Below are positions 7,519-26,322 of a stretch of 40,939 nt of DNA, one piece after another (position 1 is the first letter of the stretch; the number at the start of each line of letters is the position of its first letter). Under the pieces are notes generated by a model, which saw only the letters and a program-made list of their open reading frames with translations, did not search any database and was not told the DNA's origin. The DNA is taken from IMG/VR virus record IMGVR_UViG_3300038379_000537, positions 1 to 40,939 of that record; one strand, 5' to 3'. The translations under genes were made by a program, and so were the position numbers. The DNA is from a virus. Its lineage: Duplodnaviria; Caudoviricetes.

Positions 7519-7546
7519 TTGACAATGTACTACACCGTGGTACAAT
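7519..7546 (+). promoter_or_regulatory. Sigma70-type early promoter
   Basis: TTGACA-16 nt-TACAAT with extended TG; an imperfect inverted repeat TGTAC..GTACA overlaps the spacer. Confidence 0.75.
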
Positions 7547-8888: not shown

Positions 8889-9821
8889 GTGAAACTGCGT
8901 GATCAAATAAAAAGCGAATGGTGGTATTACCCCGGAGAATGTCGTTGGGAGTACGACCTGGGATGGACCCTCTATAACCGCACCACCCCCGTAATCCGCA
9001 AAACCACGGACGTATCCGTGGTCCTGGATCACATCGAAGAGGGGGACAAAATCGTAATCAAAAGTGACGTATATCTGCCCTACGGCTCCTACTATTATGG
9101 CGAGAGCCGGGATGCAGATTTTGTGCAAATCCGGGCGTGTAATTTTCGGCCCAACCTGCAATGGGGCGTTCAGCCAGGTTTGAAAAGCCTGGTTGAAAAA
9201 GCGGTCTACCCGCCTGATGATGCCGACATAGTCGAAATCGACACGAGTCTCTCCCTCGCACGCGAGTGCGCGTGTGTGGAGTATCCAGATGTGCTCACGC
9301 AGCCGTATTGCACGGACCGTACGGTTGAACTTAATGAGCATTACCGGATGACGTTGTTCAAATATTTTCCGTGCGACCTTACCGCGCGGAAGGCGATATT
9401 TGCGCACTTCCAGGCCATGGCCTGGAGGAACGAACAGGTCTTCATCGACCGAAAAGCGGGCATCCTGCCATACGTGCCCGAAAACATCAGGGCCGCGGCC
9501 AAAAGACTGCTGTATCACACCTGGACGGATGAGGATATCCAGGTGGTGTACAGGGGTATTTTTGGAGTGCCGCCGCAGCCCATACAAGTCAAAGTCGTGC
9601 CTAACGACAACGGGAGGCTTAAATATATCCTCAGCCGGGAGGATGGTCTTCTGTGTGAACTTCTACCCGGCTCTTGCGTAGTGTGCAGTTCTGGCGAATT
9701 AATCGCCCACAACCCGGACCTCCAAAGACTCGAGCTCAGGGACGTGGTCCTCCACGGCCTGAAAATGGAAATCGATGAGTTCGTCGAAAGCAGGAATGGT
9801 TATGAAAACGAAGAATGGTAA
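8889..9821 (+). CDS. Hypothetical early protein (310 aa)
   Basis: AAGGAG SD then GTG; long ORF. Confidence 0.75.
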   Translation: MKLRDQIKSEWWYYPGECRWEYDLGWTLYNRTTPVIRKTTDVSVVLDHIEEGDKIVIKSDVYLPYGSYYYGESRDADFVQIRACNFRPNLQWGVQPGLKSLVEKAVYPPDDADIVEIDTSLSLARECACVEYPDVLTQPYCTDRTVELNEHYRMTLFKYFPCDLTARKAIFAHFQAMAWRNEQVFIDRKAGILPYVPENIRAAAKRLLYHTWTDEDIQVVYRGIFGVPPQPIQVKVVPNDNGRLKYILSREDGLLCELLPGSCVVCSSGELIAHNPDLQRLELRDVVLHGLKMEIDEFVESRNGYENEEW

Positions 9822-9825
9822 AACG

Positions 9826-10086
9826 ATGAACAATAAAAATAAAAAACAAATCCGCCTGAACGAACACGACCAGGCCGCTTTGACCCGCGGCTTCGCGTTC
9901 GCCCAAAAGTACTACCCCGCCGTAGAACCGTCCGTGAGCTTTGTCCTCCGCCTCGCGCTGCATAGGGCCTTCCCCCTGGAAGAAGACAGGCTGTTATGCC
10001 CTCATTGCAGCACGGAGCTTGAAACCGACAATAACACGCCGGGAATTTGGCGCTGCCCAACCTGCGCGCCCAAGGAGTCAAAATGA
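9826..10086 (+). CDS. Putative ribbon-helix-helix regulator with C-terminal zinc ribbon
   Basis: KQIRLN..SVSFVLRLAL RHH-like pattern; CPHC...CPTC. Confidence 0.55.
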   Translation: MNNKNKKQIRLNEHDQAALTRGFAFAQKYYPAVEPSVSFVLRLALHRAFPLEEDRLLCPHCSTELETDNNTPGIWRCPTCAPKESK

Positions 10087-13099: not shown

Positions 13100-13149
13100 A
13101 TTATACCAGGTTTCCAGCCCTTGACAAATACTAGAACATAATTTACAAT
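13100..13149. promoter_or_regulatory. Back-to-back divergent sigma70 promoters sharing the -35 region
   Basis: Plus strand: TTGACA(13121)-17-TACAAT(13144). Minus strand: TTGTCA-16-TATAAT with extended TG (13127 to 13100). Confidence 0.7.
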
Positions 13150-13249
13150 CCAAGCACTTGAGATATGCACGAAAGAGGAAACGCCATAAAGCCCCGGCAA
13201 GGCCATGTCGTCACCCCGCTGAGGCGGGAATAATTCCAGGGAAAATAAA

Positions 13250-13849
13250 ATGAGCAAAAGTATTCACGAGGCAATTAACGCTGTCATGGGGGAGGTCGGA
13301 TATGTCAAAAAAACGAGGTCCGACAAATTGAGTTATTCCTTCGCCGGAGAAGCGGCGCTGATCTCGGCGCTGCGTCCGGCAATGGTCGAGCAGGGAATTT
13401 ACATGCACGTTCTCGAAATCAGGGGGATCACGCGGCAGGAATATTCGACCAAAAGCGGGACAAGCATGGTGAATACCGTCATTCAGGCGGTGGTTAGATT
13501 CACCCATGCCCCGTCCGGAACGTCCATTGACACAGCCGCGGTCGGCGAAGGGTCAGACGCTGGGGATAAGGGAGCCAATAAAGCCATGACCGGCCTGTAT
13601 AAGTATGCCCTGCGTCAAACATTCTGCATCGAAACCGGCGATGACCCGGATAAGTTTGCCAGCGAGGAGCGGGCTGTCCCCAAAGAATATCGCCAAAAGC
13701 TGATTGAACGGTATGATGCTCTGTCCAAAGAGGCCCGAAAATTCGGCGTGGAAGTTTACGACCTGAATGAGCATATGCAGGATGAAGAAATAACAGAAGC
13801 CGGAGTTGAATTGAAGAGCCGGCTGGATGCGGCAAAGGCGGGTAAATAA
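13250..13849 (+). CDS. erf: ERF-family ssDNA annealing protein
   Basis: YSFAGEAALISALRPAM..GEGSDAGDKGANKAMT..KYAL..TGDDPD motif. Confidence 0.88.
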   Translation: MSKSIHEAINAVMGEVGYVKKTRSDKLSYSFAGEAALISALRPAMVEQGIYMHVLEIRGITRQEYSTKSGTSMVNTVIQAVVRFTHAPSGTSIDTAAVGEGSDAGDKGANKAMTGLYKYALRQTFCIETGDDPDKFASEERAVPKEYRQKLIERYDALSKEARKFGVEVYDLNEHMQDEEITEAGVELKSRLDAAKAGK

Positions 13850-14232
13850 TGTACCAATGCATCACAATCCTGGGAAACCTTGGCCGCGACCCGGAATTAC
13901 GCTTTACTCCGAATGGCTCCGCCGTTTGTCAATTCTCTGTTGCAGCTTCCCGCAGGTATAAGAAGGGCGATGAGCTCACAGAAGAAACAACTTGGTTTCG
14001 GGTCTCTGCCTGGGGAAAAATGGCCGAAGCCTGTAACAGCTATCTCCATAAAGGTTCCAAGGTCCTGGTTGTCGGGCGCTTGGTTCCCGACCCGACCACC
14101 GGCGGCCCCCGAATTTGGACAAGCGAATCCGGAGCGGCAAAAGCATCATTCGAAATAAACGCGTCAGAGGTAAGGTTCCTTGACGCAAAAGGCGATAAAA
14201 AACAAGAAGCAGAGAAGGAATTCCCCTTCTAA
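13849..14232 (+). CDS. ssb: Single-stranded DNA-binding protein
   Basis: ILGNLGRDPELRFTPNG..TWFRVSAWG..YLHKGSKVLVVGRL; acidic C-terminus ending in PF. Confidence 0.95.
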   Translation: MYQCITILGNLGRDPELRFTPNGSAVCQFSVAASRRYKKGDELTEETTWFRVSAWGKMAEACNSYLHKGSKVLVVGRLVPDPTTGGPRIWTSESGAAKASFEINASEVRFLDAKGDKKQEAEKEFPF

Positions 14233-14278
14233 CTCACCACGGAAGCCGGTGTGATCGGCTTCCAATTTCGGAGTGACA

Positions 14279-14500
14279 ATGGAAATAATCGAGACTGTAC
14301 CATACGACCTGGATTATGCGCTCTTCCGCCTGCGGGAGGCAATCGACTTCGCCGAGCTGGAAGGCGATTTCCAGCCGGCCCGGAAATGGACGCACGAGGT
14401 CGAATTGTTGATGCGGCATACCGTCCAGCCCGAAGGCTGCGACAATTCCATGGCCGGCCAACTGAGGGCGGCCGGCTACGGCGATGGGGGGGTGATGTGA
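14279..14500 (+). CDS. Hypothetical protein
   Basis: GGAG SD; stop overlaps the next start. Confidence 0.6.
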   Translation: MEIIETVPYDLDYALFRLREAIDFAELEGDFQPARKWTHEVELLMRHTVQPEGCDNSMAGQLRAAGYGDGGVM

Positions 14501-14772
14501 AGGAAAGGACCATCGTCAAACTTATCGCAATATACCGCTGGATCGAACAGTACCAGCGGGAACATCACAGCTCGCCGTCAATCCGGGAATGGGCGGCGGC
14601 GGTGGGAATCAACAGTACCTCAGTGGCACATTATTATCTGCGGTACATGATACAGATGGGTATGATCGCGCCGGCCTTCAAGCACCGGCCGCGTTCGATC
14701 GTCCTGCTGCCGCTCGAACAGGCGAATGAACGGCTCAGGCCATTTGTCGAGAAAAAAGGAGAAAAGAAATGA
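14497..14772 (+). CDS. LexA N-terminal DNA-binding-domain-only protein
   Basis: SPSIREWAAAVGINSTSVAHYYL..RPRSI matches the LexA winged HTH (PSVREI..GL.STS.VH..L..PRAI); no peptidase domain. Confidence 0.8.
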   Translation: MKERTIVKLIAIYRWIEQYQREHHSSPSIREWAAAVGINSTSVAHYYLRYMIQMGMIAPAFKHRPRSIVLLPLEQANERLRPFVEKKGEKK

Positions 14773-14855
14773 ACAGGAATATTCCGGCTTATCTGTTTCT
14801 GGCCGCGGCGATATACGGTATGATTGTTTTCATCATGGCCCGTTGCGCATTCTGA
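14769..14855 (+). CDS. 28-aa hydrophobic peptide (MNRNIPAYLFLAAAIYGMIVFIMARCAF)
   Basis: AGGAG SD, ATGA overlap; the stop abuts the attI-like motif. Confidence 0.5.
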   Translation: MNRNIPAYLFLAAAIYGMIVFIMARCAF

Positions 14856-14883
14856 TGTACATTCCGTATAAACATAGTTAGCC
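14856..14883 (+). other. attI-like recombination site A
   Basis: TGTACATTCCGTATAAACATAG|TT matches 23/24 nt of the motif at 19595; its GTTAGCCAGAT is the exact reverse complement of ATCTGGCTAAC (15023-15033), which opens the next attC. Confidence 0.75.
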
Positions 14884-14896
14884 AGATAGGAGAAAA

Positions 14897-15136
14897 ATGA
14901 AGCCTTTCTTTGTCGTGTTCTTTAGTTCGTTTGGCGCGTTTGTTGGCGCGGTTATGGGCACAAATGGTTACGGTTGGCGCACATGGCAATTTTATGTCGT
15001 GCTTGCTTTGCTTTGCTTAGTCATCTGGCTAACAAAGCGTGCACTGGACTGGGCTAATGCGCCCACGAAAGAGCAGGCTCGGCGCAATAAGTTTCTGCGC
15101 GAACATTTCGGTCCTCCAAAATCGCCCAGCCAGTAA
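14897..15136 (+). CDS. Cassette A1: small two-TM membrane protein
   Basis: AGGAG SD; two hydrophobic stretches; reads through its attC. Confidence 0.75.
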   Translation: MKPFFVVFFSSFGAFVGAVMGTNGYGWRTWQFYVVLALLCLVIWLTKRALDWANAPTKEQARRNKFLREHFGPPKSPSQ

Positions 15137-15151
15137 CGCAAACCGTTCGGC
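15027..15151 (+). repeat. attC site A1
   Basis: GGCTAAC..GCGTGCACTGGACTGGGC / GCCCAGCCAGTAACGC..GTTCGGC with two unpaired bases in the stem. Confidence 0.9.
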
Positions 15152-15170
15152 GGCTTCCTTTAGGTGGCTT

Positions 15171-15440
15171 ATGTATATGTTCTTTGTAGGTTTGAAAGCA
15201 AAATGGGAGTTGCGAGAAATTGATGGTTGTCCTCCCTGTCCTTCTTGTGGTCACAAACACCGTTTCAACGGTTGTGTTTGCGGGTGCGAGAACAAAGCAT
15301 GGCGAGAGTATCCGCCTGTTCCCTGGTGGGTGCGTCAGATATGGTTTTGGATTTACGATATTTCCTTCCATTTCAGCCACCTGACAAAGCATGCAGCGGA
15401 TGGTGGCAACGCCGCGTCAGAGTTTAGTAATTTTGAATAA
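15171..15440 (+). CDS. Cassette A2: Cys-rich hypothetical protein
   Basis: ORF between GTT core and attC; CPSCGH..CVCGC. Confidence 0.7.
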   Translation: MYMFFVGLKAKWELREIDGCPPCPSCGHKHRFNGCVCGCENKAWREYPPVPWWVRQIWFWIYDISFHFSHLTKHAADGGNAASEFSNFE

Positions 15441-15488
15441 TTATCAGGTCTTGCGTTCACCCACCACCGCTAACGCAAACCGTTGGAG
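15379..15488 (+). repeat. attC site A2
   Basis: ACCTGAC..GCATGCAGCGGATGGTGG / CCACCACCGCTAACGC..GTTGGAG. Confidence 0.88.
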
Positions 15489-15497
15489 GACACTCGC

Positions 15498-15797
15498 ATG
15501 AATGAATATACCCAAGCATTAGAACGTGTCGCTAAAATATCGGCGCAAATTTACAAAGTAACTAGCCTAGCGTTTGCCCGCACAAAACAAATATGTTGCT
15601 CGCATGGTAACTGCCCGTCATATCCTACTCATGCGTGGTGGTGTGATAAATGCTGGTTCGAGTTGAAAGACGCTCTTGATGAGTTAGAGTCCTTCCAAGA
15701 AACCGCCCTGAAAGAAATCTTTGCTGGCAGTCAGTCTGCCCAACAAGGGCGTGAACCCGGCAAGGGCAACGTCCCGGAGCCGGTGAAGTCGGAGTAA
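15498..15797 (+). CDS. Cassette A3: hypothetical protein
   Basis: GGAGG SD inside the GTT core; Cys/His cluster. Confidence 0.7.
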   Translation: MNEYTQALERVAKISAQIYKVTSLAFARTKQICCSHGNCPSYPTHAWWCDKCWFELKDALDELESFQETALKEIFAGSQSAQQGREPGKGNVPEPVKSE

Positions 15798-15837
15798 TCT
15801 TGCGTTGCCCCTGCGGGTTACGTGCAGGCTGTTAGCC
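15738..15837 (+). repeat. attC site A3
   Basis: GCCCAAC..GCGTGAACCCGGCAAGGGCAACG / CGTTGCCCCTGCGGGTTACG..GTTAGCC. Confidence 0.85.
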
Positions 15838-15855
15838 GTCACTGAAAGGATAAAT

Positions 15856-16128
15856 ATGACTGCACACATTCACAGCTGGAATTGGGTGGTGGTGGGGTGG
15901 ACAATCTGGGCTGAGTGCTCAAAGGATTTTTGCGGGGCAACCGTCTCTCTTGTCGACATTGCGGAGATGGCAAAAGATATTCCTTACTGCGGCCCCATTT
16001 GCCCGTATTGCCGGGAATCATTACACTATAAGCCAACAAAAACTTGCGGCGGGCTGACACAGCGTACACCCGGCTTTGAGCAGGCTGTGGCGAATGACGA
16101 TGATCCAGGCGATGCCCCAAGCGGGTAA
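15856..16128 (+). CDS. Cassette A4: Cys-rich hypothetical protein
   Basis: AAGGA SD; CPYC motif; stop inside the attC. Confidence 0.7.
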   Translation: MTAHIHSWNWVVVGWTIWAECSKDFCGATVSLVDIAEMAKDIPYCGPICPYCRESLHYKPTKTCGGLTQRTPGFEQAVANDDDPGDAPSG

Positions 16129-16140
16129 CGCAAGTCCAGG
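16052..16140 (+). repeat. attC site A4 (degenerate, GTT core lost)
   Basis: GGCTGAC..GCGTACACCCGGCTT / AAGCGGGTAACGC followed by AAGTCCAGG instead of ..CCGTT. Confidence 0.7.
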
Positions 16141-16146
16141 AGAAAT

Positions 16147-16503
16147 ATGGACGCGCAAATTGAAACACTCGATGAGCAAACAGAAAAAGAAATTGAAGTC
16201 GCGCTGGGTGAATTGCGAAGCATTCAGTTTTCAGACAACACACATACTCAGGCAGTCGAAGCGCGTGAAGAAGTTGAGATCATTATTCGCGCATTGGCAA
16301 AACGTCTAACACAGCGTGCATGCGAATGGCATCTTGACGATGACGAAGCAGGCGCATGGGAATCTGCGTGTGGTGAATTGTGGTGCTTTGGAGATGGTGA
16401 TCCAAAAGATAATGGCATGCAGTATTGCCCGTTCTGTGGTTGTCATCTAACACAGCGTGTGCCTGACGCTTCGCCGTCAAGCTCACAAGCGGACGAGCTA
16501 TAA
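16147..16503 (+). CDS. Cassette A5: hypothetical protein, probably two fused cassette ORFs
   Basis: Internal attC left-arm remnant GTCTAACACAGCGTGCA at 16304-16320; C-half ends in YCPFCG. Confidence 0.7.
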   Translation: MDAQIETLDEQTEKEIEVALGELRSIQFSDNTHTQAVEAREEVEIIIRALAKRLTQRACEWHLDDDEAGAWESACGELWCFGDGDPKDNGMQYCPFCGCHLTQRVPDASPSSSQADEL

Positions 16504-16533
16504 GGCTCGCGCAGGTAACGCAAACCGTTAGGT
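16445..16533 (+). repeat. attC site A5
   Basis: ATCTAAC..GCGTGTGCCTGACGC / GCGCAGGTAACGCAAACCGTTAGGT. Confidence 0.85.
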
Positions 16534-16537
16534 GCTT

Positions 16538-16714
16538 ATGGAAACAGACATTGAAATTCATATTCTGAAAGACGGTACGCCAATTATTACCGCAATTGTC
16601 GCAGGTCGCCCAATCGCAATGACATCTTTTGAATGGCAGTTGTTTTGCCGTGATATGCTCTGCGCAATTGAAACGCACCTGACAAAACATGCACCTGCGG
16701 AAGGAGAAACGTGA
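16538..16714 (+). CDS. Cassette A6: hypothetical protein (left-arm-only attC at 16675-16700)
   Basis: Cassette start GTTAGGTGC pairs with GCACCTGAC at 16675. Confidence 0.7.
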   Translation: METDIEIHILKDGTPIITAIVAGRPIAMTSFEWQLFCRDMLCAIETHLTKHAPAEGET

Positions 16715-16932
16715 TGAACGTAGGTCAACTGAAAAAGATGTTGGAACAATATCCTGATGATATGGAAATCCTGAATAGACGTTGCAGCGATTATGAAATT
16801 ATCTCAGAAGACGAATGGCATGTTGTTCAGGGTGTCGAGAATGAAGGTGGCTGGGTAATGCGCTCACACCCTACTATGAGTGACGAAAATAAGCGTAAAG
16901 AAAAATCTTATTTGTATCTTGAAGGAAATTAA
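16711..16932 (+). CDS. Hypothetical protein (attC remnant at 16936-16955)
   Basis: AAGGAG SD; MNVGQLKKMLEQYPDD N-terminus typical of small phage proteins. Confidence 0.75.
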   Translation: MMNVGQLKKMLEQYPDDMEILNRRCSDYEIISEDEWHVVQGVENEGGWVMRSHPTMSDENKRKEKSYLYLEGN

Positions 16933-16991
16933 CACGCTCAACAAAGCGCGCAAAAGATTGTTGTAAAAATAGGCAAGAGGAAGGAGAAACT

Positions 16992-17321
16992 GTGAAAAAT
17001 AAGTATTTTTGTGTAGCAATAACTTTTTGGCAATATGTTTGGATGGGCGTAAAAGATGTGTTTACAGATAAAGAAGCCCAAAGTAAAAGTTTTCAAAGCA
17101 GGATGATTTCAAGTGTATTTGGAGTCTTAATTGGCCTGGCGCTTGGAAGCCTTATGGCTTTTGCAATAAAGTTCTTTAATATATTTGATATTTTTGCAAA
17201 GTGTGTTGTCGGCTTTTTTATCTTTGTTTGTGTGGTGGATTTGATTTGTGCAATAATTTTTCTTTTCATAAGTTGGCGCAAAGCCGTCAATGATTGTTGG
17301 GATAAATTCCACGCAGGCTGA
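16992..17321 (+). CDS. Hypothetical membrane protein (attC left arm at 17316-17346)
   Basis: AAGGAG SD, GTG start, two TM segments; followed by GGCTGACAAAGCGTGCAGCGGAC. Confidence 0.75.
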   Translation: MKNKYFCVAITFWQYVWMGVKDVFTDKEAQSKSFQSRMISSVFGVLIGLALGSLMAFAIKFFNIFDIFAKCVVGFFIFVCVVDLICAIIFLFISWRKAVNDCWDKFHAG

Positions 17322-17360
17322 CAAAGCGTGCAGCGGACAAGTGGCAGGAGGAGGTCTTTT

Positions 17361-17567
17361 TTGAAATCTAAATTGTTAAAGGATATTTGTGTATTCACTA
17401 TTTTGTTTGGTCACGGCATGGCAATAAACAGCCTGCTTAGTTGGTCTGTAATTCCCGATCCTGCTCGTTCAACTTTGCAGTGGATTCATCTTGCCACAAT
17501 GATTCCAACTATTGTTTATATGCTGATGATCTTCGACGATGCCGAAACATTGATCAACAAAGGCTGA
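17361..17567 (+). CDS. Small two-TM membrane protein (7-nt attC remnant at 17562)
   Basis: GGAGG SD, TTG start; ends at GGCTGACAAA. Confidence 0.6.
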   Translation: MKSKLLKDICVFTILFGHGMAINSLLSWSVIPDPARSTLQWIHLATMIPTIVYMLMIFDDAETLINKG

Positions 17568-17581
17568 CAAAAGGAGGCAAT

Positions 17582-17761
17582 ATGTCCATTTTCGATCCAC
17601 CCTCAGACCCGTATGGCGATGAGAAGTGCTGTCTTATTTGCGATGCCCTTCTCGAGTACAATCCACTGACCCGGACCTGGGAATGCACCCATGACCATGA
17701 CGAGTGCCATGAGTGCGACGCAACCGAAATTATCGATCCCGCCGGCCGGCCGGGCGGCTGA
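17582..17761 (+). CDS. Small Cys/His-rich protein
   Basis: AGGAGG SD; CLIC..CHEC. Confidence 0.6.
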   Translation: MSIFDPPSDPYGDEKCCLICDALLEYNPLTRTWECTHDHDECHECDATEIIDPAGRPGG

Positions 17762-17762
17762 A

Positions 17763-18227
17763 ATGGACTCCCCATGGATCAGAATTGAAGGCGAGATACA
17801 TAGCAGCAAAAATTCCAGGCGCATACTAATAAACAACAAAACCGGGCGGCCGTTTGTCGCCAAATCGAAAGCATCAAAATCCGATGAATCGTTGTTTTCC
17901 GTGCAACTGGCATCTCAAAGAGATGCATGGGAAAAGATGATCCTGAATTGTGAATACCCCATTGTCGTTGTTTTCTCATTTCGCAGGGCAACCCGCAGAA
18001 AGTTCGATTATACGAACATGACACAGGGAATTTTGGATGCGATGGTGAAAGAAAAATACATCCCGGATGATTGCGCAGATTATGTTATACCGTTTTTCGT
18101 ACCGTATATTGTTGGAAATCCGGGTTGCGACATTACGGTTATGGAAAAGGGCATGTATCTGACAATCTTGCAGATGGCGGGTGTTTTCCCGCTTGCCGCC
18201 AATGTCGCCGGAGGCAAAGATGCGTGA
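17763..18227 (+). CDS. rusA: RusA-like Holliday junction resolvase
   Basis: IEGEIHSSKNSR, RRKFDYTN..GILDAM..IPDD motifs. Confidence 0.8.
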   Translation: MDSPWIRIEGEIHSSKNSRRILINNKTGRPFVAKSKASKSDESLFSVQLASQRDAWEKMILNCEYPIVVVFSFRRATRRKFDYTNMTQGILDAMVKEKYIPDDCADYVIPFFVPYIVGNPGCDITVMEKGMYLTILQMAGVFPLAANVAGGKDA

Positions 18228-18792
18228 ATTAGTGTCAACAGTCCTGAGGCCAATCACCGTTTCCGAAATCTGGGAAATTGCGGGAGAGGCCGCCTGTAAC
18301 CGTTGGGAGGCTCTCGGACAGACCGCCTCAAAGGTCAATTGGGCGTACGGCGCGGAGGCCGAAGCCTTGATCGTCGAGGGAATGCCGGCCATGCAGGTGT
18401 ATAAGGCGATTGCAATCAAGGCCGGCGTGTCCTCGCAGACCGTGCGCAAGTCGTATAATGTCTACATGGCATTCGGCGAGGCTGTCCGCAGGAAATACGA
18501 GCTTTGTCCGTACTCGGCATTTCGAATTGCCCACGGACAGAAGGACCCCGAAGAAGTCCTGAAATATTATCAGGACAGGCGTTGCAGCATTGACGAGCTG
18601 AAGGAAGTGTTCCCGCCCATGAATGACGTGAACGGCGGCAAACACAAGCGGTTTGTATCGTCGGGATACCCCCGATATTTTTGGGGCATCCTGCGCGAGG
18701 TCTACGGCTCGCCCAGGGAGCGTGAGGCTTTGGAGCACCTGGACGCGCTGGCCAGGATAATCAAGGAGCTGAACGATGAAAAATCCGATTGA
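18220..18792 (+). CDS. Hypothetical protein
   Basis: GGAGG SD; coupled to neighbours. Confidence 0.7.
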   Translation: MRELVSTVLRPITVSEIWEIAGEAACNRWEALGQTASKVNWAYGAEAEALIVEGMPAMQVYKAIAIKAGVSSQTVRKSYNVYMAFGEAVRRKYELCPYSAFRIAHGQKDPEEVLKYYQDRRCSIDELKEVFPPMNDVNGGKHKRFVSSGYPRYFWGILREVYGSPREREALEHLDALARIIKELNDEKSD

Positions 18793-19069
18793 TTTGTTGA
18801 TCGAAGAGGACATTGCCCGGAACCGATTCCAGGCCGCGCATATTATAAACGGTCTGAAACTGTGGGAGTTGGAAACGGACGAGGAACGCCTGGAACGTGC
18901 CCGTCTGTACCGCGACTGGCGCAACTCCAAAATCTATCCGGAGAAGGACACTGCGTCATGTTATTGGCAGGCCATCGGCGGGATTCCCGTTCCGCAGCTG
19001 GAACTGATCCGCGGAACACTGCACACCCATGCGGAATCTTCGGGTGACGAAAATAGGAGGGCCAAATGA
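18776..19069 (+). CDS. Hypothetical protein
   Basis: AAGGAG SD; operon-coupled. Confidence 0.65.
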   Translation: MKNPIDLLIEEDIARNRFQAAHIINGLKLWELETDEERLERARLYRDWRNSKIYPEKDTASCYWQAIGGIPVPQLELIRGTLHTHAESSGDENRRAK

Positions 19070-19329
19070 AGTACGTAAAGGTAAGTCTCATTTTGGAGTG
19101 TGACGGCCAGCCGATCTTTGACGATCTGGTCGATGAGATCGTCGAATGGATGATGAAAAATAACCTGCGGGGGTCCGTCGGCCTGCAACCGATCACTGAC
19201 GACGATCTCACCCCTGCCGCCGTCATCGCCGAACACCTGGACGCCATACGCGTCGAGTTGGTCGGCATATGGCGGGAGTGGGTCCGCAAACTCGGGCGGG
19301 TGAGCTGCAACGCTGGGGAGAACCTATGA
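19066..19329 (+). CDS. Hypothetical protein
   Basis: AGGAGG SD; ATGA overlaps. Confidence 0.65.
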   Translation: MKYVKVSLILECDGQPIFDDLVDEIVEWMMKNNLRGSVGLQPITDDDLTPAAVIAEHLDAIRVELVGIWREWVRKLGRVSCNAGENL

Positions 19330-19586
19330 AAAAGACGATGCGCAGGCTTATCCGAACCTGGAAGGACTGTATCGATTACCGCCTGGTGGAAATTGCGGCA
19401 CGTGAATGCGGGGCGGCAATCAAAAACGGCCGCGGGGACCATAAAATGCTCCGGCTCAACGGCTTTGCCGTCACATACTACACGAGTCACAAAATGTCCA
19501 TCGGTGTGGCCCGGGAGGTGTTCAAGTTTTTCCTCCGAGCCGGGGCTGTAGCCTTGTTGGTTGCCGGTCTGATCCTGACAGCTTAG
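19326..19586 (+). CDS. Possible HicA-like protein with hydrophobic C-terminus
   Basis: NGRGDHKML resembles the HicA GSH motif; MSIGVAREVFK resembles the HicA C-terminal helix. Confidence 0.4.
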   Translation: MKKTMRRLIRTWKDCIDYRLVEIAARECGAAIKNGRGDHKMLRLNGFAVTYYTSHKMSIGVAREVFKFFLRAGAVALLVAGLILTA

Positions 19587-19594
19587 AAAGTCCG

Positions 19595-19622
19595 TGTACA
19601 TTCTGTATAAACATAGTTGTGC
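19595..19622 (+). other. attI-like recombination site B
   Basis: TGTACATTCTGTATAAACATAG|TT; its GTTGTGCGC is the reverse complement of GCGCACAAC (24022-24030), which opens the next attC. Confidence 0.75.
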
Positions 19623-19649
19623 GCTTGTTGCGAAAGGATAGGTGTCCCT

Positions 19650-19820
19650 ATAATTTGCTCAAATATTTACGGCGTGGTGCGTGATAACCCTGGCATTCGG
19701 GCGGGCAAAATCGCCGCCTTGCTAAACGTCCAACGCTCACAGATAACCCGCGCGTTGCCGCAAATGCAAAGGCGCGGATACTTATTGAGCGAATATAAAA
19801 ACAGGTTATTTGCTTTCTGA
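19650..19820 (+). CDS. Small winged-HTH (MarR-like) protein; start uncertain, possibly truncated
   Basis: VRDNPGIRAGKIAALLNVQRSQITRALPQMQRRGYLLSE HTH pattern; no clear in-frame ATG. Confidence 0.55.
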   Translation: MICSNIYGVVRDNPGIRAGKIAALLNVQRSQITRALPQMQRRGYLLSEYKNRLFAF

Positions 19821-19850
19821 AACCTGAATGAACCTAAAAGGAAAAATGAA

Positions 19851-21353
19851 ATGAAACTTACAAATGATACCGTAACAAAAGTTGTCTCTGTGCTTGGCTC
19901 AATGATGAACAGCGCAACCGTCACTGGCAAGGGGAACAAACTTGATTTTTATGCCGACAGAGTACGGCAGGCAACGACAAAGCCTGATTTGGTAACTACC
20001 CTGAATCGCTTCGGAGAATTGCTCGGCTCATCCGCTTTGCAGGGCGAAGATTTGAAAAATCTTTTGCTGGCTGGAAAAGCGCAGGACGCAAAAGCGGTTT
20101 ATCAATGGTTGCGCGAATTGCCGCGTTTGCCAGTTGGAATCGCAAAAGAAAAATTGGCAGACCAGCCCGCGTTGATTGAAGCAGTTTGCGACACATACGA
20201 GGCGCAGGAAGTCGCCATCGGCGCACTTAAGCCGCGCCCGAAATTTGACATTAATATGACCGCCACAGTTTTACAGGCTTTATCTCATGGCGCAGATACC
20301 AAAGCGGGAAACGCTACGCTATTTCGCCGCGCAAAAGTTCGGGGCGGAATGGAATTACCTTTCTTTTCCGCGAATGCAATTGGCGGCATTATGCGTGATT
20401 TGCTTTCCGACCATTTCACCGTTGCGATGGGGTTCAAGGTTGACCGCGCCGACCCAATTTGGGATACATGGTTTTTCCATCTGCTATATAGCGGCGGCAT
20501 TATGCAAGATGGATATATCCCCAAAGAATTTGAGCGCGTTCTTACTGGCGCGGCGGCTGGAACTGTCCGCAGTGATGGCGTGCGTCAGTTGCGCTCCATG
20601 CTTCCGTTCTTCTCTGTTCTTGGTGGCGTTGGAAAGCATCCCATCGAAGGTTATATTTTCATAAATGACCTTCGCCCCAAATGTATTGAATGGGGAAACG
20701 GCGGAGAAAAGTCAGTCAACAGCATGATGGACTGGCGTTATATCACGCGCCCTGATAACTACGAAGGACGTACCAGCAAGGCGCAGAAAGAATCGGGCGA
20801 TACAGCCAGCGACGACACTCAAAACACTTCGATGATTGCAAATGCGGAATGCTTGCAGGAAGGCGAAGTCTTGGAAGGCGGATTTTTCCTATCCAGCCAC
20901 ATGACAGAAATCGAACGCGCCGCGCTGTATAAAGGTTTGACCCTGCTCAAAGAATATGGCTATCTTGGCGCAAAGGGTCATCGCGGATATGGCTTGTGTG
21001 CAATTGACTATCAAACTGATTTGGTCATTGACCCCAAGCCATATGATGATTATCTCGCCGCGAACAAGGATGAAATTATCGGCTACCTGAAAGGCATTGG
21101 CGCGTTTCCGAAGGCAGAGAAGGCAAAGAAAGAAACTCAGAGTAAAAAGCAAGAGAAGATTTTCAGTAGCGATGGAGCGTATGACGCCACTAATGATGTT
21201 GCAAGAATCATTCGTGTGTGCGCGACGCATGGAGATAGTTTTACACCCGAAGAAGCACGTGACAGATGGGAAGATATATCAAGTGGTATTGCTGGATGGC
21301 TATCACTTCCAGTATCAGATGATGAACTTTACGAATACTTCGAGAAACGCTAA
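19851..21353 (+). CDS. csf2: Type IV Cas7-like RAMP (Csf2) with N-terminal Cas11-like helical domain and C-terminal extension
   Basis: ALSHG..GNATLFRR, LPFFSANAIGGIMRD, FHLLYSGG, LRSMLPFFSVLGG, and G-rich loop LGAKGHRGYG characteristic of Csf2/Cas7. Confidence 0.85.
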   Translation: MKLTNDTVTKVVSVLGSMMNSATVTGKGNKLDFYADRVRQATTKPDLVTTLNRFGELLGSSALQGEDLKNLLLAGKAQDAKAVYQWLRELPRLPVGIAKEKLADQPALIEAVCDTYEAQEVAIGALKPRPKFDINMTATVLQALSHGADTKAGNATLFRRAKVRGGMELPFFSANAIGGIMRDLLSDHFTVAMGFKVDRADPIWDTWFFHLLYSGGIMQDGYIPKEFERVLTGAAAGTVRSDGVRQLRSMLPFFSVLGGVGKHPIEGYIFINDLRPKCIEWGNGGEKSVNSMMDWRYITRPDNYEGRTSKAQKESGDTASDDTQNTSMIANAECLQEGEVLEGGFFLSSHMTEIERAALYKGLTLLKEYGYLGAKGHRGYGLCAIDYQTDLVIDPKPYDDYLAANKDEIIGYLKGIGAFPKAEKAKKETQSKKQEKIFSSDGAYDATNDVARIIRVCATHGDSFTPEEARDRWEDISSGIAGWLSLPVSDDELYEYFEKR

Positions 21354-21354
21354 C

Positions 21355-22089
21355 ATGCACGCCACAGACCTAATTGCAACGTGCATGACGGACGAACAGA
21401 AAGAGCCGCTTCCCGAAGCGGCTCAAACTGGCGTTTGCTGTGTATCAGGCGCGGAAACGCTGACCATCCAGCGCAAGCATTTATTCGGCGCAAACTTCAA
21501 CGACCTGAATATTCTCGTATGCCCCGACTCTTCACGAGTCGGGGTGAATGTCTGGTATGCGTTCAAGTTCGGGGAGCCTGGCATAAACCCAGAAACAGGC
21601 GAAGTGAACAAGCGTAAGAAGTACAAAGAAATGCAGATGTGTTGGTGGACGGATGGCGAAACATTCCGTGAGATGAACAAGGCAAAAATCCGCGAATTGG
21701 TTTTGCGCGGAACGACGTCAAAGCGTTGGGCGGGATGGGTTACTACATCCTATAAAAAGCATGGCTCTTTGCGCTCGCCTGTCAACAATACACCTTTTGG
21801 CATTTGGGGCTTCGATGGTTTGCAAGTCCGCGCCAATGACAAAGAGCAAGTATTGACAATGTGGGCAAAATTGCGAGACGCGCAAAAGAACGGCATTGGG
21901 CGCACAGGCATCGAGACGCTTGATATTCCAGTCCCCATCATGTCTAAAGTTGGAATTGTATTTTGCAACGATTTTATCTTGTGGGCGCGTCCGCTTGTTC
22001 AATCGCCGTTATATCAATTCCTGACTTATCTTTTGCCAAGTCAGGAAGAATTGAAAGAAGGGTACAGCGATGAAAATTTGTATGATTGA
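21355..22089 (+). CDS. csf1: Type IV Cas8-like large subunit (Csf1-like)
   Basis: N-terminal GVCCVSG..FGANFND..CPDS (degenerate Zn finger), SYKKHGSLRSPVN motif; size and position between csf2 and csf3. Confidence 0.7.
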   Translation: MHATDLIATCMTDEQKEPLPEAAQTGVCCVSGAETLTIQRKHLFGANFNDLNILVCPDSSRVGVNVWYAFKFGEPGINPETGEVNKRKKYKEMQMCWWTDGETFREMNKAKIRELVLRGTTSKRWAGWVTTSYKKHGSLRSPVNNTPFGIWGFDGLQVRANDKEQVLTMWAKLRDAQKNGIGRTGIETLDIPVPIMSKVGIVFCNDFILWARPLVQSPLYQFLTYLLPSQEELKEGYSDENLYD

Positions 22090-23332
22090 ATCTGTCCACG
22101 ATGAAGATACAGGGTCAATTGGACCTTACTTCGTGGCGGAAGCCGTGCGATCTTTAGGGCATACTGTTGACGTAATTCCTTTCGACTCTCCACGCCGACA
22201 TTATGACGTTGAATTGATTAGCGTGCATCATCCAGCCAGTTACCCTGTTTTTCAACAAACCCCGAAGCATGGAAAAATAAGAATCGTCGGCGGACACGTT
22301 ACCTATACAGACCCGCGTCCGCTTATACCTTTGAGTGACGTTGTTTGCGTTGGAGATGGGGAAGTGTGGATAAAGGACATCATACAAAAGATTGACGCAG
22401 ACCGCGATTATCTGAAAAAGGTTGAACATATCGAAGGCGCAATCTTGCCTGAATTTTGGAGCGTTGGCGATATACTTCCGCATCCCAACTTTATTCGTCC
22501 GCTGCTTAATAACCCGCCGTATCTAAGCAAGCCAGGAACATACAAGGCGGCTTGGTATGTTGAGATAGCAAGGGGATGTCCGTTTAGTTGCTCTTACTGC
22601 GAAGTGGGCAACTCTATGCCATACCGTCTCCACAAACTTGACGAAATTATTGAGACAATCAAAACGCTTGATACAAATCAGGCAAATAAAATTGTGTTCT
22701 TTGCTCCTGACGAAGCCAGTTATCCGAAATATGGCGAGTTGGTAAAAGTGGCGAAAGCGCACGGGATGCGGCAAGTTGTAGGGCTTTACCGCCTTGACCA
22801 AATTATGCGGCACGATTTGCAATTTGAACCTAATCAACTTATAAAAGTTGGAATAGATGGATTGTCAGAGCGTATGCGTTATCAAAATAAACGTCGAATT
22901 TCCAACGAAAATATTTATGATTACTTCAAACTTCTTACTTCGCGTGGTCATAAGTTTTTTAAGGCATACCAATTATTCAGCCTGCCGAACGAAACAGAAG
23001 ATGATTTTTACGAATGGGAAGCGCTTATGGAACGAGTGCGGGCTATCCCTGTTCGTGAAACGGTTAAGTTTATGATTGCCTGGTCTCCATTGATTCCACG
23101 TCCTAAAACGCCTTTCGCAAACGAAACTCCGCATTACGACACGAAGGTAGCAAAGTTAATAAAAAATTGGCATAAGCGCGTTGCAGTGCCAGATAGCGAT
23201 CCAGGCTGGCAAATTGACTTTGAACGAATGCAGGGAACAAAAACATATCAAAAAAATGTAGAGATGTATTCTGGAAACGAGTTGTCTTTGATTGAAGGCG
23301 CAAGTTATATACATCCTGCTTGGAGACAATAA
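22070..23332 (+). CDS. B12-binding-domain radical SAM enzyme
   Basis: EIARGCPFSCSYC (CxxxCxxC); N-terminal IVGGHVT..DVVCVGDGE cobalamin-binding-like domain; GIDGLSERMR, LPNETEDD, PLIPRPKTPF. Confidence 0.9.
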   Translation: MKICMIESVHDEDTGSIGPYFVAEAVRSLGHTVDVIPFDSPRRHYDVELISVHHPASYPVFQQTPKHGKIRIVGGHVTYTDPRPLIPLSDVVCVGDGEVWIKDIIQKIDADRDYLKKVEHIEGAILPEFWSVGDILPHPNFIRPLLNNPPYLSKPGTYKAAWYVEIARGCPFSCSYCEVGNSMPYRLHKLDEIIETIKTLDTNQANKIVFFAPDEASYPKYGELVKVAKAHGMRQVVGLYRLDQIMRHDLQFEPNQLIKVGIDGLSERMRYQNKRRISNENIYDYFKLLTSRGHKFFKAYQLFSLPNETEDDFYEWEALMERVRAIPVRETVKFMIAWSPLIPRPKTPFANETPHYDTKVAKLIKNWHKRVAVPDSDPGWQIDFERMQGTKTYQKNVEMYSGNELSLIEGASYIHPAWRQ

Positions 23333-24012
23333 TGAGCAAACCTAAATTGAATCCGTTGAAAGTCACGTTTGAAATGGACATTGCAGGCGCGATATATGAC
23401 CCGTTTGTTCCGCCGACATTGGACGGTATCATTGATTGGTGTCTCTCGCCGATGGTGAGACAATCCAAGTCTGCGCCGACGCGGGGCGGAGAACCCGAAG
23501 AAATCCGCCTACCATTTGGCACTTGGCGCGTTGGTAAACATTGGGGCTGGTGCGCGTCTGCCCTGCAACCGCTGGATGATGAAACCGTGATGACATCTAT
23601 CCGCTATTGGCGTAAGCGATTCCGCGAGAACAAAATATCAATGGTGAATGGTGTTATCAATACGCAAGCTGGAGCAATGCGCGATTACAACTTGCCTTTT
23701 GAAGTGCAACATCCAACATCATTAACGGCTTATTGTGTAGCAGACAGGCATACCATCCATGACCTTTTGCGCCGCAACTTGAAATACATCGCCAAGAAAA
23801 AACATCGCGGCATGGGATTGGTGACTGACTTTTCGGTTGAGATTATTGCAGATGATTACTCTTTGATGTGCGACGGTAAAGCAATGCGCTGGTTGCCGAC
23901 TGCGGAAGGCTTGCGCGAAGTCCGCTTGCGCCCGCCATATTGGAATAATAACGAGCGCGTGGCGTGTTGCGAAGTTGGAGACGAGTATCATGGCGCAATC
24001 AGTCAACCGTAA
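23332..24012 (+). CDS. csf3: Type IV Cas5-like RAMP (Csf3)
   Basis: PLKVTFEM..TLDGII, WCASAL, YWRKRF, C-terminal G-loop YIAKKKHRGMGLV, RWLP..RPPYW; TAATG overlap with the radical SAM stop. Confidence 0.82.
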   Translation: MSKPKLNPLKVTFEMDIAGAIYDPFVPPTLDGIIDWCLSPMVRQSKSAPTRGGEPEEIRLPFGTWRVGKHWGWCASALQPLDDETVMTSIRYWRKRFRENKISMVNGVINTQAGAMRDYNLPFEVQHPTSLTAYCVADRHTIHDLLRRNLKYIAKKKHRGMGLVTDFSVEIIADDYSLMCDGKAMRWLPTAEGLREVRLRPPYWNNNERVACCEVGDEYHGAISQP

Positions 24013-24023
24013 AAACAAAACGC

Positions 24024-24150
24024 GCACAACACCGCTTGCACCCGACAAGTGGGATTCTGTGCCTTTTCTGGCATTGTCCACGCTTTGAGTTTTTCCACAT
24101 CTCGAAGTTTATCCAAGCCCGCCCACTTGCGGGTAAAGCAAAAGTTCGGC
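24024..24150 (+). repeat. attC site B1 (closes the Cas cassette)
   Basis: GCACAAC..GCTTGCACCCGACAAGTGGG / CCCACTTGCGGGTAAAGC..GTTCGGC. Confidence 0.9.
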
Positions 24151-24174
24151 GGCACGCCGAAGAAAGTAGGTAAC

Positions 24175-24405
24175 GTGGATTTTTCTTTCTGTAAATGTGG
24201 TCACTACCACTCGTCACATAGTTTCGGGAAAGGTTGTAGGTATTGCGATTGCAAATTAAGTGATGTCGAAGTTGTATCCGCGAACTCAGAAGCCGCCGAA
24301 CACCGTATGCACCTGACCGCCTTTGGCGTGGGTACTGCGGCGGTAATTCCCCTGCAAGCGTCACTGTTTGCGGATGACCAGCCCGCTACAATCGGCGGCA
24401 GGTAA
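24175..24405 (+). CDS. Cassette B2: small Cys/His protein
   Basis: GTG start; CKCGH..H..C..CDC; stop inside the attC. Confidence 0.6.
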   Translation: MDFSFCKCGHYHSSHSFGKGCRYCDCKLSDVEVVSANSEAAEHRMHLTAFGVGTAAVIPLQASLFADDQPATIGGR

Positions 24406-24420
24406 TGCAGTCCGTTGGAA
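24295..24420 (+). repeat. attC site B2
   Basis: GCCGAAC..GTATGCACCTGACCGCC / GGCGGCAGGTAATGC..GTTGGAA. Confidence 0.88.
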
Positions 24421-24430
24421 GGCTAAAGCG

Positions 24431-24973
24431 ATGTTGTATCCGATAATTTACGCAGACCCACCGTGGAGATATGAGTACCCTCCAATGGGCGCAAGTAACC
24501 GAAGTATTGAGAACCATTATCAAACCATGACCATCGATGAAATAAAGGCTATGAATATCCCTAGTGCAAGCAATGGCGTTCTTTTTTTGTGGGCAACCGC
24601 TCCGAAGTTGAAAGAGTGTATTGATGTAATGCTTGCTTGGGGTTATCAATATAGAACGTGCATGTCATGGGACAAAGAAGTTATTGGCATGGGTTACTGG
24701 TTTCGTAATCAGCATGAATTACTCCTTGTTGGCTTAAAAGGTAAGTTTTCTCCACCAGTGCCGTCGCAAAGAATGTCAAGTGTATGGCGCGAGAAGCGCA
24801 CGAAACACAGCAAGAAGCCAGATGGTATCCGTGAGTGGATAAGTTCCTGTTATCCCAATGTTCCAAAACTGGAGTTATTCGCTCGGCAAAGAGTTGAGGG
24901 TTGGGATGTGTTTGGGAACGAAGTAGAAGGTTCTATACGCCTTCCAACAAAGCGTGAACCCGACAAAAACTAG
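24431..24973 (+). CDS. MT-A70-family N6-adenine methyltransferase (cassette B3)
   Basis: IYADPPW, LFLWAT, GMGYWFRNQHELLLVG, HSKKP, KLELFAR, GWDVFGNE. Confidence 0.92.
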   Translation: MLYPIIYADPPWRYEYPPMGASNRSIENHYQTMTIDEIKAMNIPSASNGVLFLWATAPKLKECIDVMLAWGYQYRTCMSWDKEVIGMGYWFRNQHELLLVGLKGKFSPPVPSQRMSSVWREKRTKHSKKPDGIREWISSCYPNVPKLELFARQRVEGWDVFGNEVEGSIRLPTKREPDKN

Positions 24974-25035
24974 AGTCGGGCAAAATTATCAGGTTCGGCG
25001 TTCCCCGTTTTTGCGGGTTACGCAAGCCGTTGGGC
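24942..25035 (+). repeat. attC site B3
   Basis: GCCTTCCAAC (complement of cassette start GTTGGAAGGC)..GCGTGAACCCGACAAAAAC / GTTTTTGCGGGTTACGC..GTTGGGC. Confidence 0.9.
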
Positions 25036-25065
25036 GGCTCTTGCTCAACAGAAAAGGAAATTGAA

Positions 25066-25227
25066 ATGAGATTATTTTGCTGGTATTGTCACAAGTCTGT
25101 CAGCAGTGAATTACCCGATAATACAATTTTTAAGGGCGGGTCAAGGCCGGGACCCTTTGCCGGATCGCCAAAAGCGCCGGCCGGTGGGTCCCTTGCCGTC
25201 CAGACCTGCTGGATGCCCTTGGCCTGA
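25066..25227 (+). pseudogene. Truncated last cassette ORF (MRLFCWYCHK..)
   Basis: AAGGA SD; the AT-rich start switches abruptly to GC-rich sequence at about 25133; no attC follows. Confidence 0.45.
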
Positions 25228-25405
25228 TCCCCAGACCCGGCCCCAAGCGCCCTCGTCCGCGTCTACGAAGACTGATCGAGGAAATGGCCGCGGAGACACG
25301 CGCGGCATTGTACCGATGGAAAAATCCAGCCAAATGACGGGATTTTTGTTATACTTTCCCTGCCGCCAGGGACGAGGCGAGAGTAGTACTCCCTGCATCG
25401 GCTGA

Positions 25406-25438
25406 GCAAAATCACCCGGGTACAGCCGGGTGATTTGT
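25406..25438. terminator. Hairpin terminator between convergent operons
   Basis: AAATCACCCGG-GTACAG-CCGGGTGATTT immediately beyond the holin stop. Confidence 0.7.
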
Positions 25439-25443
25439 GTTGT

Positions 25444-25713
25444 TTATCCTTGATTGGCGTCGTACAGGCCGGAGGCTGAGACACCGACCGCCAGGCCGAA
25501 TACCAGGACCTCGAACCAGCCGGCGAAGTCGGTCGGCATCGGCGCGCGCGAAAGATGATAGCCAAAGCCGAGCAGCAGCCCGACCCCGGCAGACAGCAGG
25601 CGAACCAGCCGGCCCGAAAGACCGAAACCCTTGATGAACTGCACCAGACCGATGGTCAATACCAGCAGCGGAATGCCGGCCACAACAGCATACTTAAAGG
25701 CATCTTCAAACAT
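25444..25713 (-). CDS. Holin (probable)
   Basis: AAGGAG SD; three TM segments; C-terminal GLAVGVSASGLYD motif. Confidence 0.75.
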   Translation of the reverse strand: MFEDAFKYAVVAGIPLLVLTIGLVQFIKGFGLSGRLVRLLSAGVGLLLGFGYHLSRAPMPTDFAGWFEVLVFGLAVGVSASGLYDANQG

Positions 25714-25715
25714 TT

Positions 25716-26066
25716 TTACTCCTTGTCGAAAATTCCCGGCGGGATGAGCCTGTCCACGTTCTCGGTCGCAGAGAACGGCACCGGGTCGATTTCGTTTTTC
25801 ATGAGTTGATTGGCAAGTCTTTTTGCCCAGTCTTCCCATTTTTGCGAGCGTTTACGCTCCTTGTCCAGCTCCTTTTCGAGCTTTTCGCGCAATGTGGTTT
25901 CTTTCGATAACGCCTCCTTCAAATCCTTGCTTTGTATTTTCAGTTCTTCGACGACCTTTTGCAAGTCCTCGAATGCCGACCGCTTTGCGGCAGTCGAGGC
26001 AATTACCAACGATACGATGACAGGCACGGTCGCGATGATCGCCAGGATGATGTTATTTGTTTCCAT
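25716..26066 (-). CDS. Lysis-module protein (N-terminal TM plus coiled coil)
   Basis: Hydrophobic N-terminus, charged heptad region. Confidence 0.7.
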   Translation of the reverse strand: METNNIILAIIATVPVIVSLVIASTAAKRSAFEDLQKVVEELKIQSKDLKEALSKETTLREKLEKELDKERKRSQKWEDWAKRLANQLMKNEIDPVPFSATENVDRLIPPGIFDKE

Positions 26067-26322
26067 TCAACCGCCTGTATATTCGGATTGCGACATAGGA
26101 TGTGATCTCTACCACCGCGATCATTCCGGTCATCACCCGAAAATATATCCGCGACTCGACAGACATCGACCAGTCTGTATTTATCACGGCATAGAGATAT
26201 AACAACGCCAGGAAAATCCGGGCCAGGGCATGTTCATACTGCTTGCCGAAAATTTTTATCGCGGCGGCGACTAAAAATATCGCGGCGAGAAACACAAAAA
26301 AGGATGGCATGGTATTAATCAT
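26053..26322 (-). CDS. Three-TM membrane protein (holin-like)
   Basis: Hydrophobicity; position in the lysis module. Confidence 0.65.
   Translation of the reverse strand: MINTMPSFFVFLAAIFLVAAAIKIFGKQYEHALARIFLALLYLYAVINTDWSMSVESRIYFRVMTGMIAVVEITSYVAIRIYRRLNGNK

Follow-up and report, generated by a model that had tools for sequence, protein, structure and literature searches.

How does a tailed phage without any integrase gene come to carry two arrays of integron-type gene cassettes, each opening at the same short motif? The question was raised by virus record IMGVR_UViG_3300038379_000537 (Duplodnaviria; Caudoviricetes), whose whole length of 40,939 nucleotides (nt) was analysed and is called the window below. 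A 24-nt motif (24-mer) is found at 14856-14879 (site A) and again at 19595-19618 (site B), as a preliminary description of the sequence had reported, and the two copies differ by one base; no further copy was detected in the window at up to three mismatches, and none in 100 shuffles. The evidence presented here makes it quite probable that both 24-mers are attI docking sites in an integrase-less phage, loaded with cassettes at G/TT by a borrowed integrase, either the host's or another phage's. The window is a CALIN (attC sites that cluster where no integron-integrase is encoded) with attI, which works like an integron platform and is not a complete integron.

All sites, cassettes and genes described lie on the + strand unless stated otherwise. 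Site A begins on the base directly following a TGA stop codon (14853-14855) and comprises a TGTACA box, an L-like box, a spacer and the G/TT crossover at 14877/14878, and site B, with its crossover at 19616/19617, begins 8 nt after a TAG stop (19586). Both sites end at a GTT that opens a cassette matching the R'' box of its own attC. The complementarity of cassette start and R'' was 10/10 at site A (14877 versus 15027) and 9/10 at site B (19616 versus 24024), which confirmed the proposal that each copy ends at the GTT of a first cassette. The first cassettes at A and B differ, and the sequence identity of the two sites stops at the GTT. The parts of an attI simple site, namely L-like box, spacer and GTT at the head of an array, were present at both, with a spacing one base under that of most hosts. 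No recombinase or integrase was found by Pfam among the 49 open reading frames (ORFs) of the window, the TIGR02249 profile gave 0 candidates in the record, and the tblastn queries, one a host IntI and one a Xer-like protein, reached a best E of 0.6 in the window, in agreement with the claim that no tyrosine recombinase is encoded. The record is that of a whole tailed phage (CheckV completeness 99%; terminal repeat 121 nt), and the intI gene of a complete integron is missing from it.

The attC sites were searched throughout with our own arm matrices, which were trained on 203 host attC sites and superseded a noisy first generic attC scan. The strict host matrix gave 9 left-arm and 4 right-arm matches, all within 15027-25035 and on the + strand, against 0.03 each in shuffles; the soft matrix added weak matches outside the arrays, as in shuffles (mean 3-4). 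Seven two-armed sites (15027, 15379, 15738, 16445, 24024, 24295 and 24942) and four half sites with the left arm alone (16304, 16677, 16936 and 17316) were detected. The counts of seven complete sites, one degenerate site and half sites proposed earlier were reproduced, but the word complete held for five of the seven, which are canonical, and not for 15379, which carries GAC, or 15738, whose spacers are lengthened. In 8/8 aligned sites the stem had two bulges, an extrahelical G and T on the bottom strand as described in PMC7439510, so that the unpaired bases reported at conserved stem positions were verified. The folding energy of the attC sites (z from -0.3 to -2.9, below -2 in 2/8) was weak evidence by itself. 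More than two attC sites with R'', L'', L' and R' boxes and extrahelical bases, and no integrase nearby, define the window as a CALIN. The cassette start was complementary to its own R'' at 10/10 positions in cassette A1, 9/10 in B1 and 10/10 in both B2 and B3, as in gene cassettes, and at 7 in A4, 8 in A6, 7 in A2 and 5 in A3 in the rest of array A. The reconstituted free forms of A1, B1, B2 and B3 folded to full attC hairpins, and the A2 form failed. Cassette status is best proven for A1, B1, B2 and B3 because their boundaries are complementary.

An attC right-arm pattern matched at least 187 stretches, by record title mostly of Anaerolineales and other Chloroflexota, and IntI was found above cut-off in 99 of 301 Anaerolineales genomes. 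Because the attC arms match that order and IntI is encoded in these genomes, we infer an Anaerolineales host; the seven two-armed attC sites are of Anaerolineales type. The attI upstream of intI in two hosts (G002 and G001) ends in GTATAAAACATAGTT and the phage sites end in GTATAAACATAGTT, the host having one more A. Regions upstream of host intI numbered 92, of which 84 had sufficient length, and 38 attI candidates were picked from the cassette side alone; 10 host attI sites were additionally defined by first-cassette complementarity. When the matrix of the 38 candidates was applied with a one-base-shorter register allowed, sites A and B ranked 1 and 2 of 1221 GTTs with 13.9 and 13.3 bits, and the leave-one-out median of the host candidates themselves was 7.9 bits. 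This host-only ranking supported the attI-like character of the 24-mer. The third high scorer, a minus-strand GTT at 17509 with 11 bits, heads no array and was taken as chance. The short register fits better in 9/38 host candidates. The host resemblance is confined to the 3' half of the 24-mer (14 nt), in the one-base-shorter form, and the 5' half is phage-specific. Upstream of L-R, attI1 has an accessory set of direct repeats besides its L box (PMC4792948); compared with attI1 and host attI, the L-like box is kept at the phage sites but the host upstream palindromes are gone, and the TGTACA box lies in their place. The expectation that the 24-mer itself lies upstream of host intI failed: the exact 24-mer or 22-mer had 0 matches in the viral, genome and metagenome collections, the 24-mer at 3 mismatches had none in 401 Anaerolineales-order genomes, and the exact motif stood beside no host intI in these searches. 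The closest match among the other loci compared had 7 mismatches.

Related sites were found in other phages. The attC pattern matched 108 viral stretches, and among 31 distinct array heads, found without the motif, 17 scored at least 7 bits versus 0.28% of 32,642 background GTTs; 6/31 of these heads start with TGTACA versus 0/38 host sites. A family pattern built from 8 phage sites had 37 viral matches, 28 with an attC arm downstream and 2 with one upstream; 15 of the 37 had at least 8/10 complementarity of the first cassette. The same pattern had 0 matches in the 301 host genomes. Two family sites each were found on three other contigs. The first ORFs behind family sites were unrelated (1 homologous pair among 31), IntI was found in 6/49 and 1/29 virus records, and 8 of the 10 near-complete records in the 29-record set had no tyrosine-recombinase match. 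The suggestion that the motif precedes variable cassettes in other phages was thus upheld for related sites, which head unrelated first genes, mostly without intI.

These matches bear on the possibility that the 24-mer is an operator or promoter alone and that the cassettes landed at ordinary secondary GWT (attG) sites. IntI does insert at GWT (10.1101/2022.09.11.507474), TGTACA boxes occur in the promoters of a gene family linked to related sites (below), TACATT in the motif resembles a -10 box, and site B matches a promoter at 9/12 positions. However, -35 matches accompany TACATT in 7/30 family sites versus 12%, barely over chance, and the 3' 14 nt fit host attI by the host-only matrix. In 30 sites the box and the crossover are separated by a constant 21-22 nt, which the pattern imposes in part, but the 31 array heads were found without the motif. 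At attG sites GWT alone is conserved and an attI-like left arm is absent, which is not the case at A and B. An operator or promoter alone was thus judged very improbable.

It was also considered whether the phage twice captured a fragment of a host chromosomal integron and is a mere ferry of host cassettes. The attC arms do match Anaerolineales arrays, and one host contig (G060:C430) carries a site of this kind with its linked gene. Against this, the family site was in 0/301 genomes by pattern, and the cassettes themselves are different: among 263 viral cassette bodies, 57 match another phage and 2 a host cassette, among 209 host bodies 27 match another host, the median body is 245 nt in viruses versus 666 nt in hosts, and an ORF reads into attC at 199/295 viral versus 14/223 host sites. 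These differences in pool, size and read-through have already largely refuted the capture of a host fragment, which is scarcely credible. Cassette A7 and the Cas module described below recur in phages otherwise dissimilar to the window. As far as sequence comparison goes, the phage cassettes are a pool apart from host cassettes, common to phages and rarely shared with hosts. On this point the proposed capture and shuffling of accessory genes by the phage did not hold as first put forward.

Several observations weigh against functional attI sites in the window. Scored in the register of most host candidates, the sites fall to ranks 19 and 20 of 1221, and the short register occurs in 3/30 family sites, two being the window's own; because this register is rare, the sites may be impaired. 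A host with the exact 24-mer as attI was not found in the collections searched, and PMC2095811 describes each IntI as being specific for its cognate attI. Several of the 8 training sites recur among the 37 family matches, some are duplicates, and 9/37 have no attC arm. No recombination or heterogeneity of cassette order was seen in the assembled contigs of one run. That run contains the region and is possibly its source, and no RNA data set was listed as containing it. The contigs of the run had even depth, and the sole joints were 20-nt-sided, typical of other organisms; a contig break at 15824-15836 showed no loose end and proves nothing.

A rival reading is that of dead relics, attI-array blocks built by IntI in other phages, which entered the window by homologous or illegitimate recombination and whose shortened sites are inert. 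Both sites are one base shorter than 27/30 family sites, the gene found upstream of related sites is absent, array A is decayed, the phage encodes ERF and SSB, and such routes were proposed by Qi et al. in 2023 (PMC9892861). But the copies differ by 1 base in 24 and yet head different cassettes with boundaries intact at 9-10/10, the attC sites of array B are canonical, and short-register heads open intact cassettes in another viral locus (L424) and beside phage intI genes. Relics of this kind are thus held to be unlikely, and docking sites loaded by a borrowed integrase are preferred.

Whose integrase would have loaded these docking sites was considered from both sides. Phage IntIs of the same attC family share 47-58% identity with the host enzymes closest to them, and short-register attI sites are found in phages G428 and G432 and in GenBank KX853513.1 (Virus Rctr41k), all with a phage IntI. 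The IntI tree was a quick, unfinished search from which no origin is claimed. The host's chromosomal IntI has a little better than an even chance of being the source, and a phage-encoded IntI falls just short of one. The idea of a host IntI borrowed in trans was retained as to the supply in trans, and not as to the host as sole source, a phage-encoded IntI being equally considered. At the loci of phage-encoded IntIs (L468-L476), attI is oriented as intI is and lies just past its 3' end, versus the divergent layout of hosts. In Virus Rctr41k (KX853513.1, 4680-10100; L478), an integron integrase that is annotated xerD is accompanied by an attI-like site and by at least 6 attC of the same family.

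Array A opens with cassette A1 (14878..15145, 268 bp), a 79-aa ORF running into its own canonical attC of 125 nt (15027..15151; R'/R'' 10/10). In attC A2 (15379..15488) the R'' is changed from AAC to GAC and the core is mismatched to the cassette start; attC A3 (15738..15837) has an intact stem and lengthened R-L spacers on both sides; the degenerate attC A4 (16052..16138) has GAC in R'' and has lost the GTT of R'. A left-arm half site lies within a 118-aa ORF (16304..16330), followed by the canonical attC A5 of 89 nt (16445..16533) and by a half site with R'' GAC fused to the ribosome-binding site of the next cassette (16677..16699). That cassette, A7 (16696..16952), encodes a 73-aa ORF, contains the half site at 16936 and is 90% identical to an intact cassette of phage G429. 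The last half site (17316..17345), also with R'' GAC, overlaps the TGA stop of a 109-aa ORF. In the four array A boxes with GAC, the change is CTA to CTG in a read-through ORF in three and TAA to TGA in one. At equal threshold GAC was found in R'' at 3/9 window sites, 0/333 sites of other phages and 2/302 host sites, a comparison that is biased because the viral loci were found via an intact attC arm, a point against our interpretation. From these sequences, array A looks largely locked or decayed through silent AAC-to-GAC changes. A possible fifth R'' remnant with GAC lies at 17561-17572, under the matrix threshold, at the stop of a 79-aa ORF.

Array B has three canonical attC sites. Its first cassette, B1 (19617..24144, 4,528 bp), contains a weak helix-turn-helix ORF, then Cas genes and a radical S-adenosylmethionine (SAM) enzyme: type IV Cas7/Csf2 (19851-21353), Cas8-like/Csf1 (21355-22089), the radical SAM enzyme (22070-23332) and Cas5/Csf3 (23332-24012), closed by a canonical attC of 127 nt (24024..24150). 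Cassette B2 (24145..24414, 270 bp; attC 24295-24420, 10/10) is followed by B3 (24415..25029, 615 bp; attC 24942-25035, 10/10), which encodes an MT-A70 methyltransferase, and by the start of a last cassette, B4 (25030..25227), without its own attC. By PADLOC, csf1, csf2 and csf3 were found with E of 1e-7, 7e-37 and 2e-27, the set of type IV-B, and a TIGR03116 match (E 3e-20) was under the family cut-off. No CRISPR array was detected among the 20 largest repeat families of the window or by Rfam (0 matches), so the module is array-less. Type IV-B CRISPR-Cas normally comes with a cysH-like gene (PMC8175902); a match to phosphoadenosine phosphosulfate reductase was lacking among the 49 ORFs, and a radical SAM enzyme is present in the module. 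The candidate region for Cas11 is the N-terminal ~130 aa of Csf2, with weak Cas11 matches only in homologs P0051 and P0059, and a fusion of Cas11 with Csf2 is probable. Phage G454 has a Cas module of 83-87% identity, which ends there at a degraded R''; G429 and G454 match nothing else of window positions 12800-27000 save attC arms. The radical SAM gene of G454 is 47% identical and the neighbouring genes 89-93%.

The 5' half of the 24-mer was interpreted by comparison with relatives, in which the site comes after the stop codon of a gene for a conserved ribbon-helix-helix (RHH)-like protein of 64-79 aa (22/24 loci by strict pattern); when loci were found from this protein alone, the site was present in 4/5, one as a variant. 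At E<=0.001 the family comprises 86 representatives, and it is present in 1/301 host genomes. A two-helix homodimer with paired N-terminal residues was predicted (score 0.57, best control 0.00; contacts agreeing at >=96%, pLDDT >=74), at a mark reached by 20/30 solved homodimers and 1/23 single chains. The top folds include TraM, NikR and PutA domains (Z 3.3-4.4), and the atlas neighbours are RHH-type, below 0.9. TGTAC boxes were seen by eye inside the promoter in 8/8 RHH-like genes having their own promoter. TGTACA is thus likely the operator of an RHH protein, predicted to be autoregulated, and it also abuts the IntI L box. Speaking against this operator, no homolog of the RHH-like family was detected in the window, the fold Z-scores are weak and in the range that the tool calls common, and Foldseek gave 0 matches to the monomer. 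GTAC was not clearly enriched at strong viral promoters (30 versus 32 of 291 in the downstream control, which may itself catch family attI sites), and palindrome covariation was weak (p 0.03, one position). Pfam RHH did not match the protein, and GenBank phages gave 0 matches. For the 14 nt left of each window site compared with RHH-gene ends (p 0.04 and 0.17), no similarity is claimed. On the short host contig G060:C430 (L453 / L477), the RHH-like gene, its promoter and the attI-like site directly follow a bacterial-looking gene; judging from this contig, the gene and site may form a module moving independently.

In the window itself, a strong promoter-like site (7519..7546) has a pair of GTAC boxes spaced by 13 nt, and the genome contains two pairs of this kind; the site resembles the RHH-like gene promoters of relatives and may be linked to TGTACA. 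The same operon encodes an orphan protein with RHH-like layout and a zinc ribbon (9775..10086), a candidate GTAC binder to be taken as a lead only (hhalign probability against the RHH-like family 0.6%; no other homologs; single-sequence model pLDDT 67). Copies of an exact direct repeat of 94 nt that includes a palindrome (7797-7890 and 8767-8860, with a partial third copy at 8354-8386) separate three ORFs of this operon; they are not attC-like and are possibly another modular gene-swap unit.

Expression of the cassettes would depend on the surrounding operon. A sigma-70-like promoter matching the consensus at 11/12 positions (13121..13149) heads an ERF-SSB-LexA-like operon spanning both arrays, the genes of 13250-25227 are all on the + strand with short gaps, and no strong terminator precedes the terminator-like hairpin at 25409..25436, which ends the rightward operon. 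The site at 13121 is the joint best + strand match in the window, and, as suggested earlier, it is a candidate for the cassette promoter Pc. Back-to-back promoters (+13121 and -13127) lie within 13100-13149, between the replication and recombination operons, and the gene at 14497 is a lone LexA DNA-binding domain. The G+C content is 0.46-0.47 in both arrays and 0.54 in the backbone, among whose genes Pfam identified terminase, portal, capsid, lysin, DnaB, ERF and SSB. No close relatives of the window phage were found, and ERF homologs are at most 39% identical. Elsewhere, three 21-nt repeats (12322-12384) inside a replication-initiator-like gene are likely origin iterons, and a ParB-like gene with an ABC-ATPase/GNAT fusion (5724-7399, - strand; 62% identical in L186) lies upstream of the terminase genes.

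Based on these results, a mechanism may be proposed. IntI supplied in trans would have inserted the cassettes, among them the 4.5-kb type IV module of site B, so that the newest stands first, and the promoterless cassettes would be read from the operon promoter at 13121. The 5' TGTACA box would stand in for the host upstream palindromes as operator of a small RHH protein, which would gate integrase access or read-through and whose gene would be missing or replaced in the window. Sites A and B would stem from one duplication, because both share the rare 21-nt spacing. Array A would have been domesticated, silent AAC-to-GAC changes and lost right arms blocking excision with the proteins kept, and array B would still be excisable. 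More broadly, and with somewhat less than even confidence, we propose that Anaerolineales phages have an integron economy of their own, with a phage-specific attI gated by an RHH protein in the position otherwise taken by intI, private compact cassettes, an integrase on loan from hosts or helper phages, cargo as large as an entire type IV Cas operon, and useful cassettes made permanent through silent point changes in attC. If this is true, phage attC clusters are a working, regulated phage-to-phage gene exchange in Anaerolineales, here seen mostly as sludge and groundwater genomes, and not captured debris; they would provide a route for the movement of array-less type IV Cas modules and a natural case of cassette fixation through silent attC mutation. 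The system would also provide an attI of 24 nt, a protein that is a candidate accessory factor of an integron site, and matched host and phage IntIs.

Compared with known systems, the sedentary chromosomal integrons that Anaerolineales carry (G001, G002 and others) agree with the window in the attC arm consensus, in the extrahelical G and T and in the attI 3' half, but differ in a divergent intI ~140-290 nt from the site, upstream palindromes, attC of 120-139 nt, and larger cassettes with ORFs ending before attC. Complete integrons encoded by phages (G422, G428, G432, G450 and Rctr41k) share the attC family and differ in having a co-oriented intI directly upstream and in lacking the TGTACA box. 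In attG sites and SALINs (single attC sites lacking integron-integrases; 10.1101/2022.09.11.507474), cassettes likewise lie outside an integron platform, at a GWT core; those sites share GWT and short motifs alone, whereas the window sites conserve 24 nt matching attI. Type IV-B CRISPR-Cas (PMC8175902) is likewise a Csf1/Csf2/Csf3 set that lacks an array and lies on a mobile element; compared with its csf1, csf2, csf3, cas11 and cysH-like genes, B1 has a radical SAM enzyme and no cysH-like gene, Cas11 is probably Csf2-fused, and the whole module is a single integron cassette. A literature search outside subscription journals returned no paper on a phage-specific attI family, RHH-linked attI, silent attC locking, type IV operons carried as cassettes, radical SAM enzymes in a type IV module, or Rctr41k. 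CALINs of phages, one of them with an attI at its head, are already known: Qi, Rajabal, Ghaly, Tetu and Gillings (2023, PMC9892861) described intI-less attC clusters with methyltransferase cassettes in phages, as in the window, IntI1 recombined 5/6 of the phage attC sites, and the CALIN of Shewanella prophage M16-3 is headed by its own attI. The attI of M16-3 is host-type with intI in the same prophage, whereas the attI of the window is phage-specific and duplicated, with intI absent. In that paper the arrays are seen as captured pieces, whereas the site family of the window is tied to an RHH-like gene and to a separate phage cassette pool.

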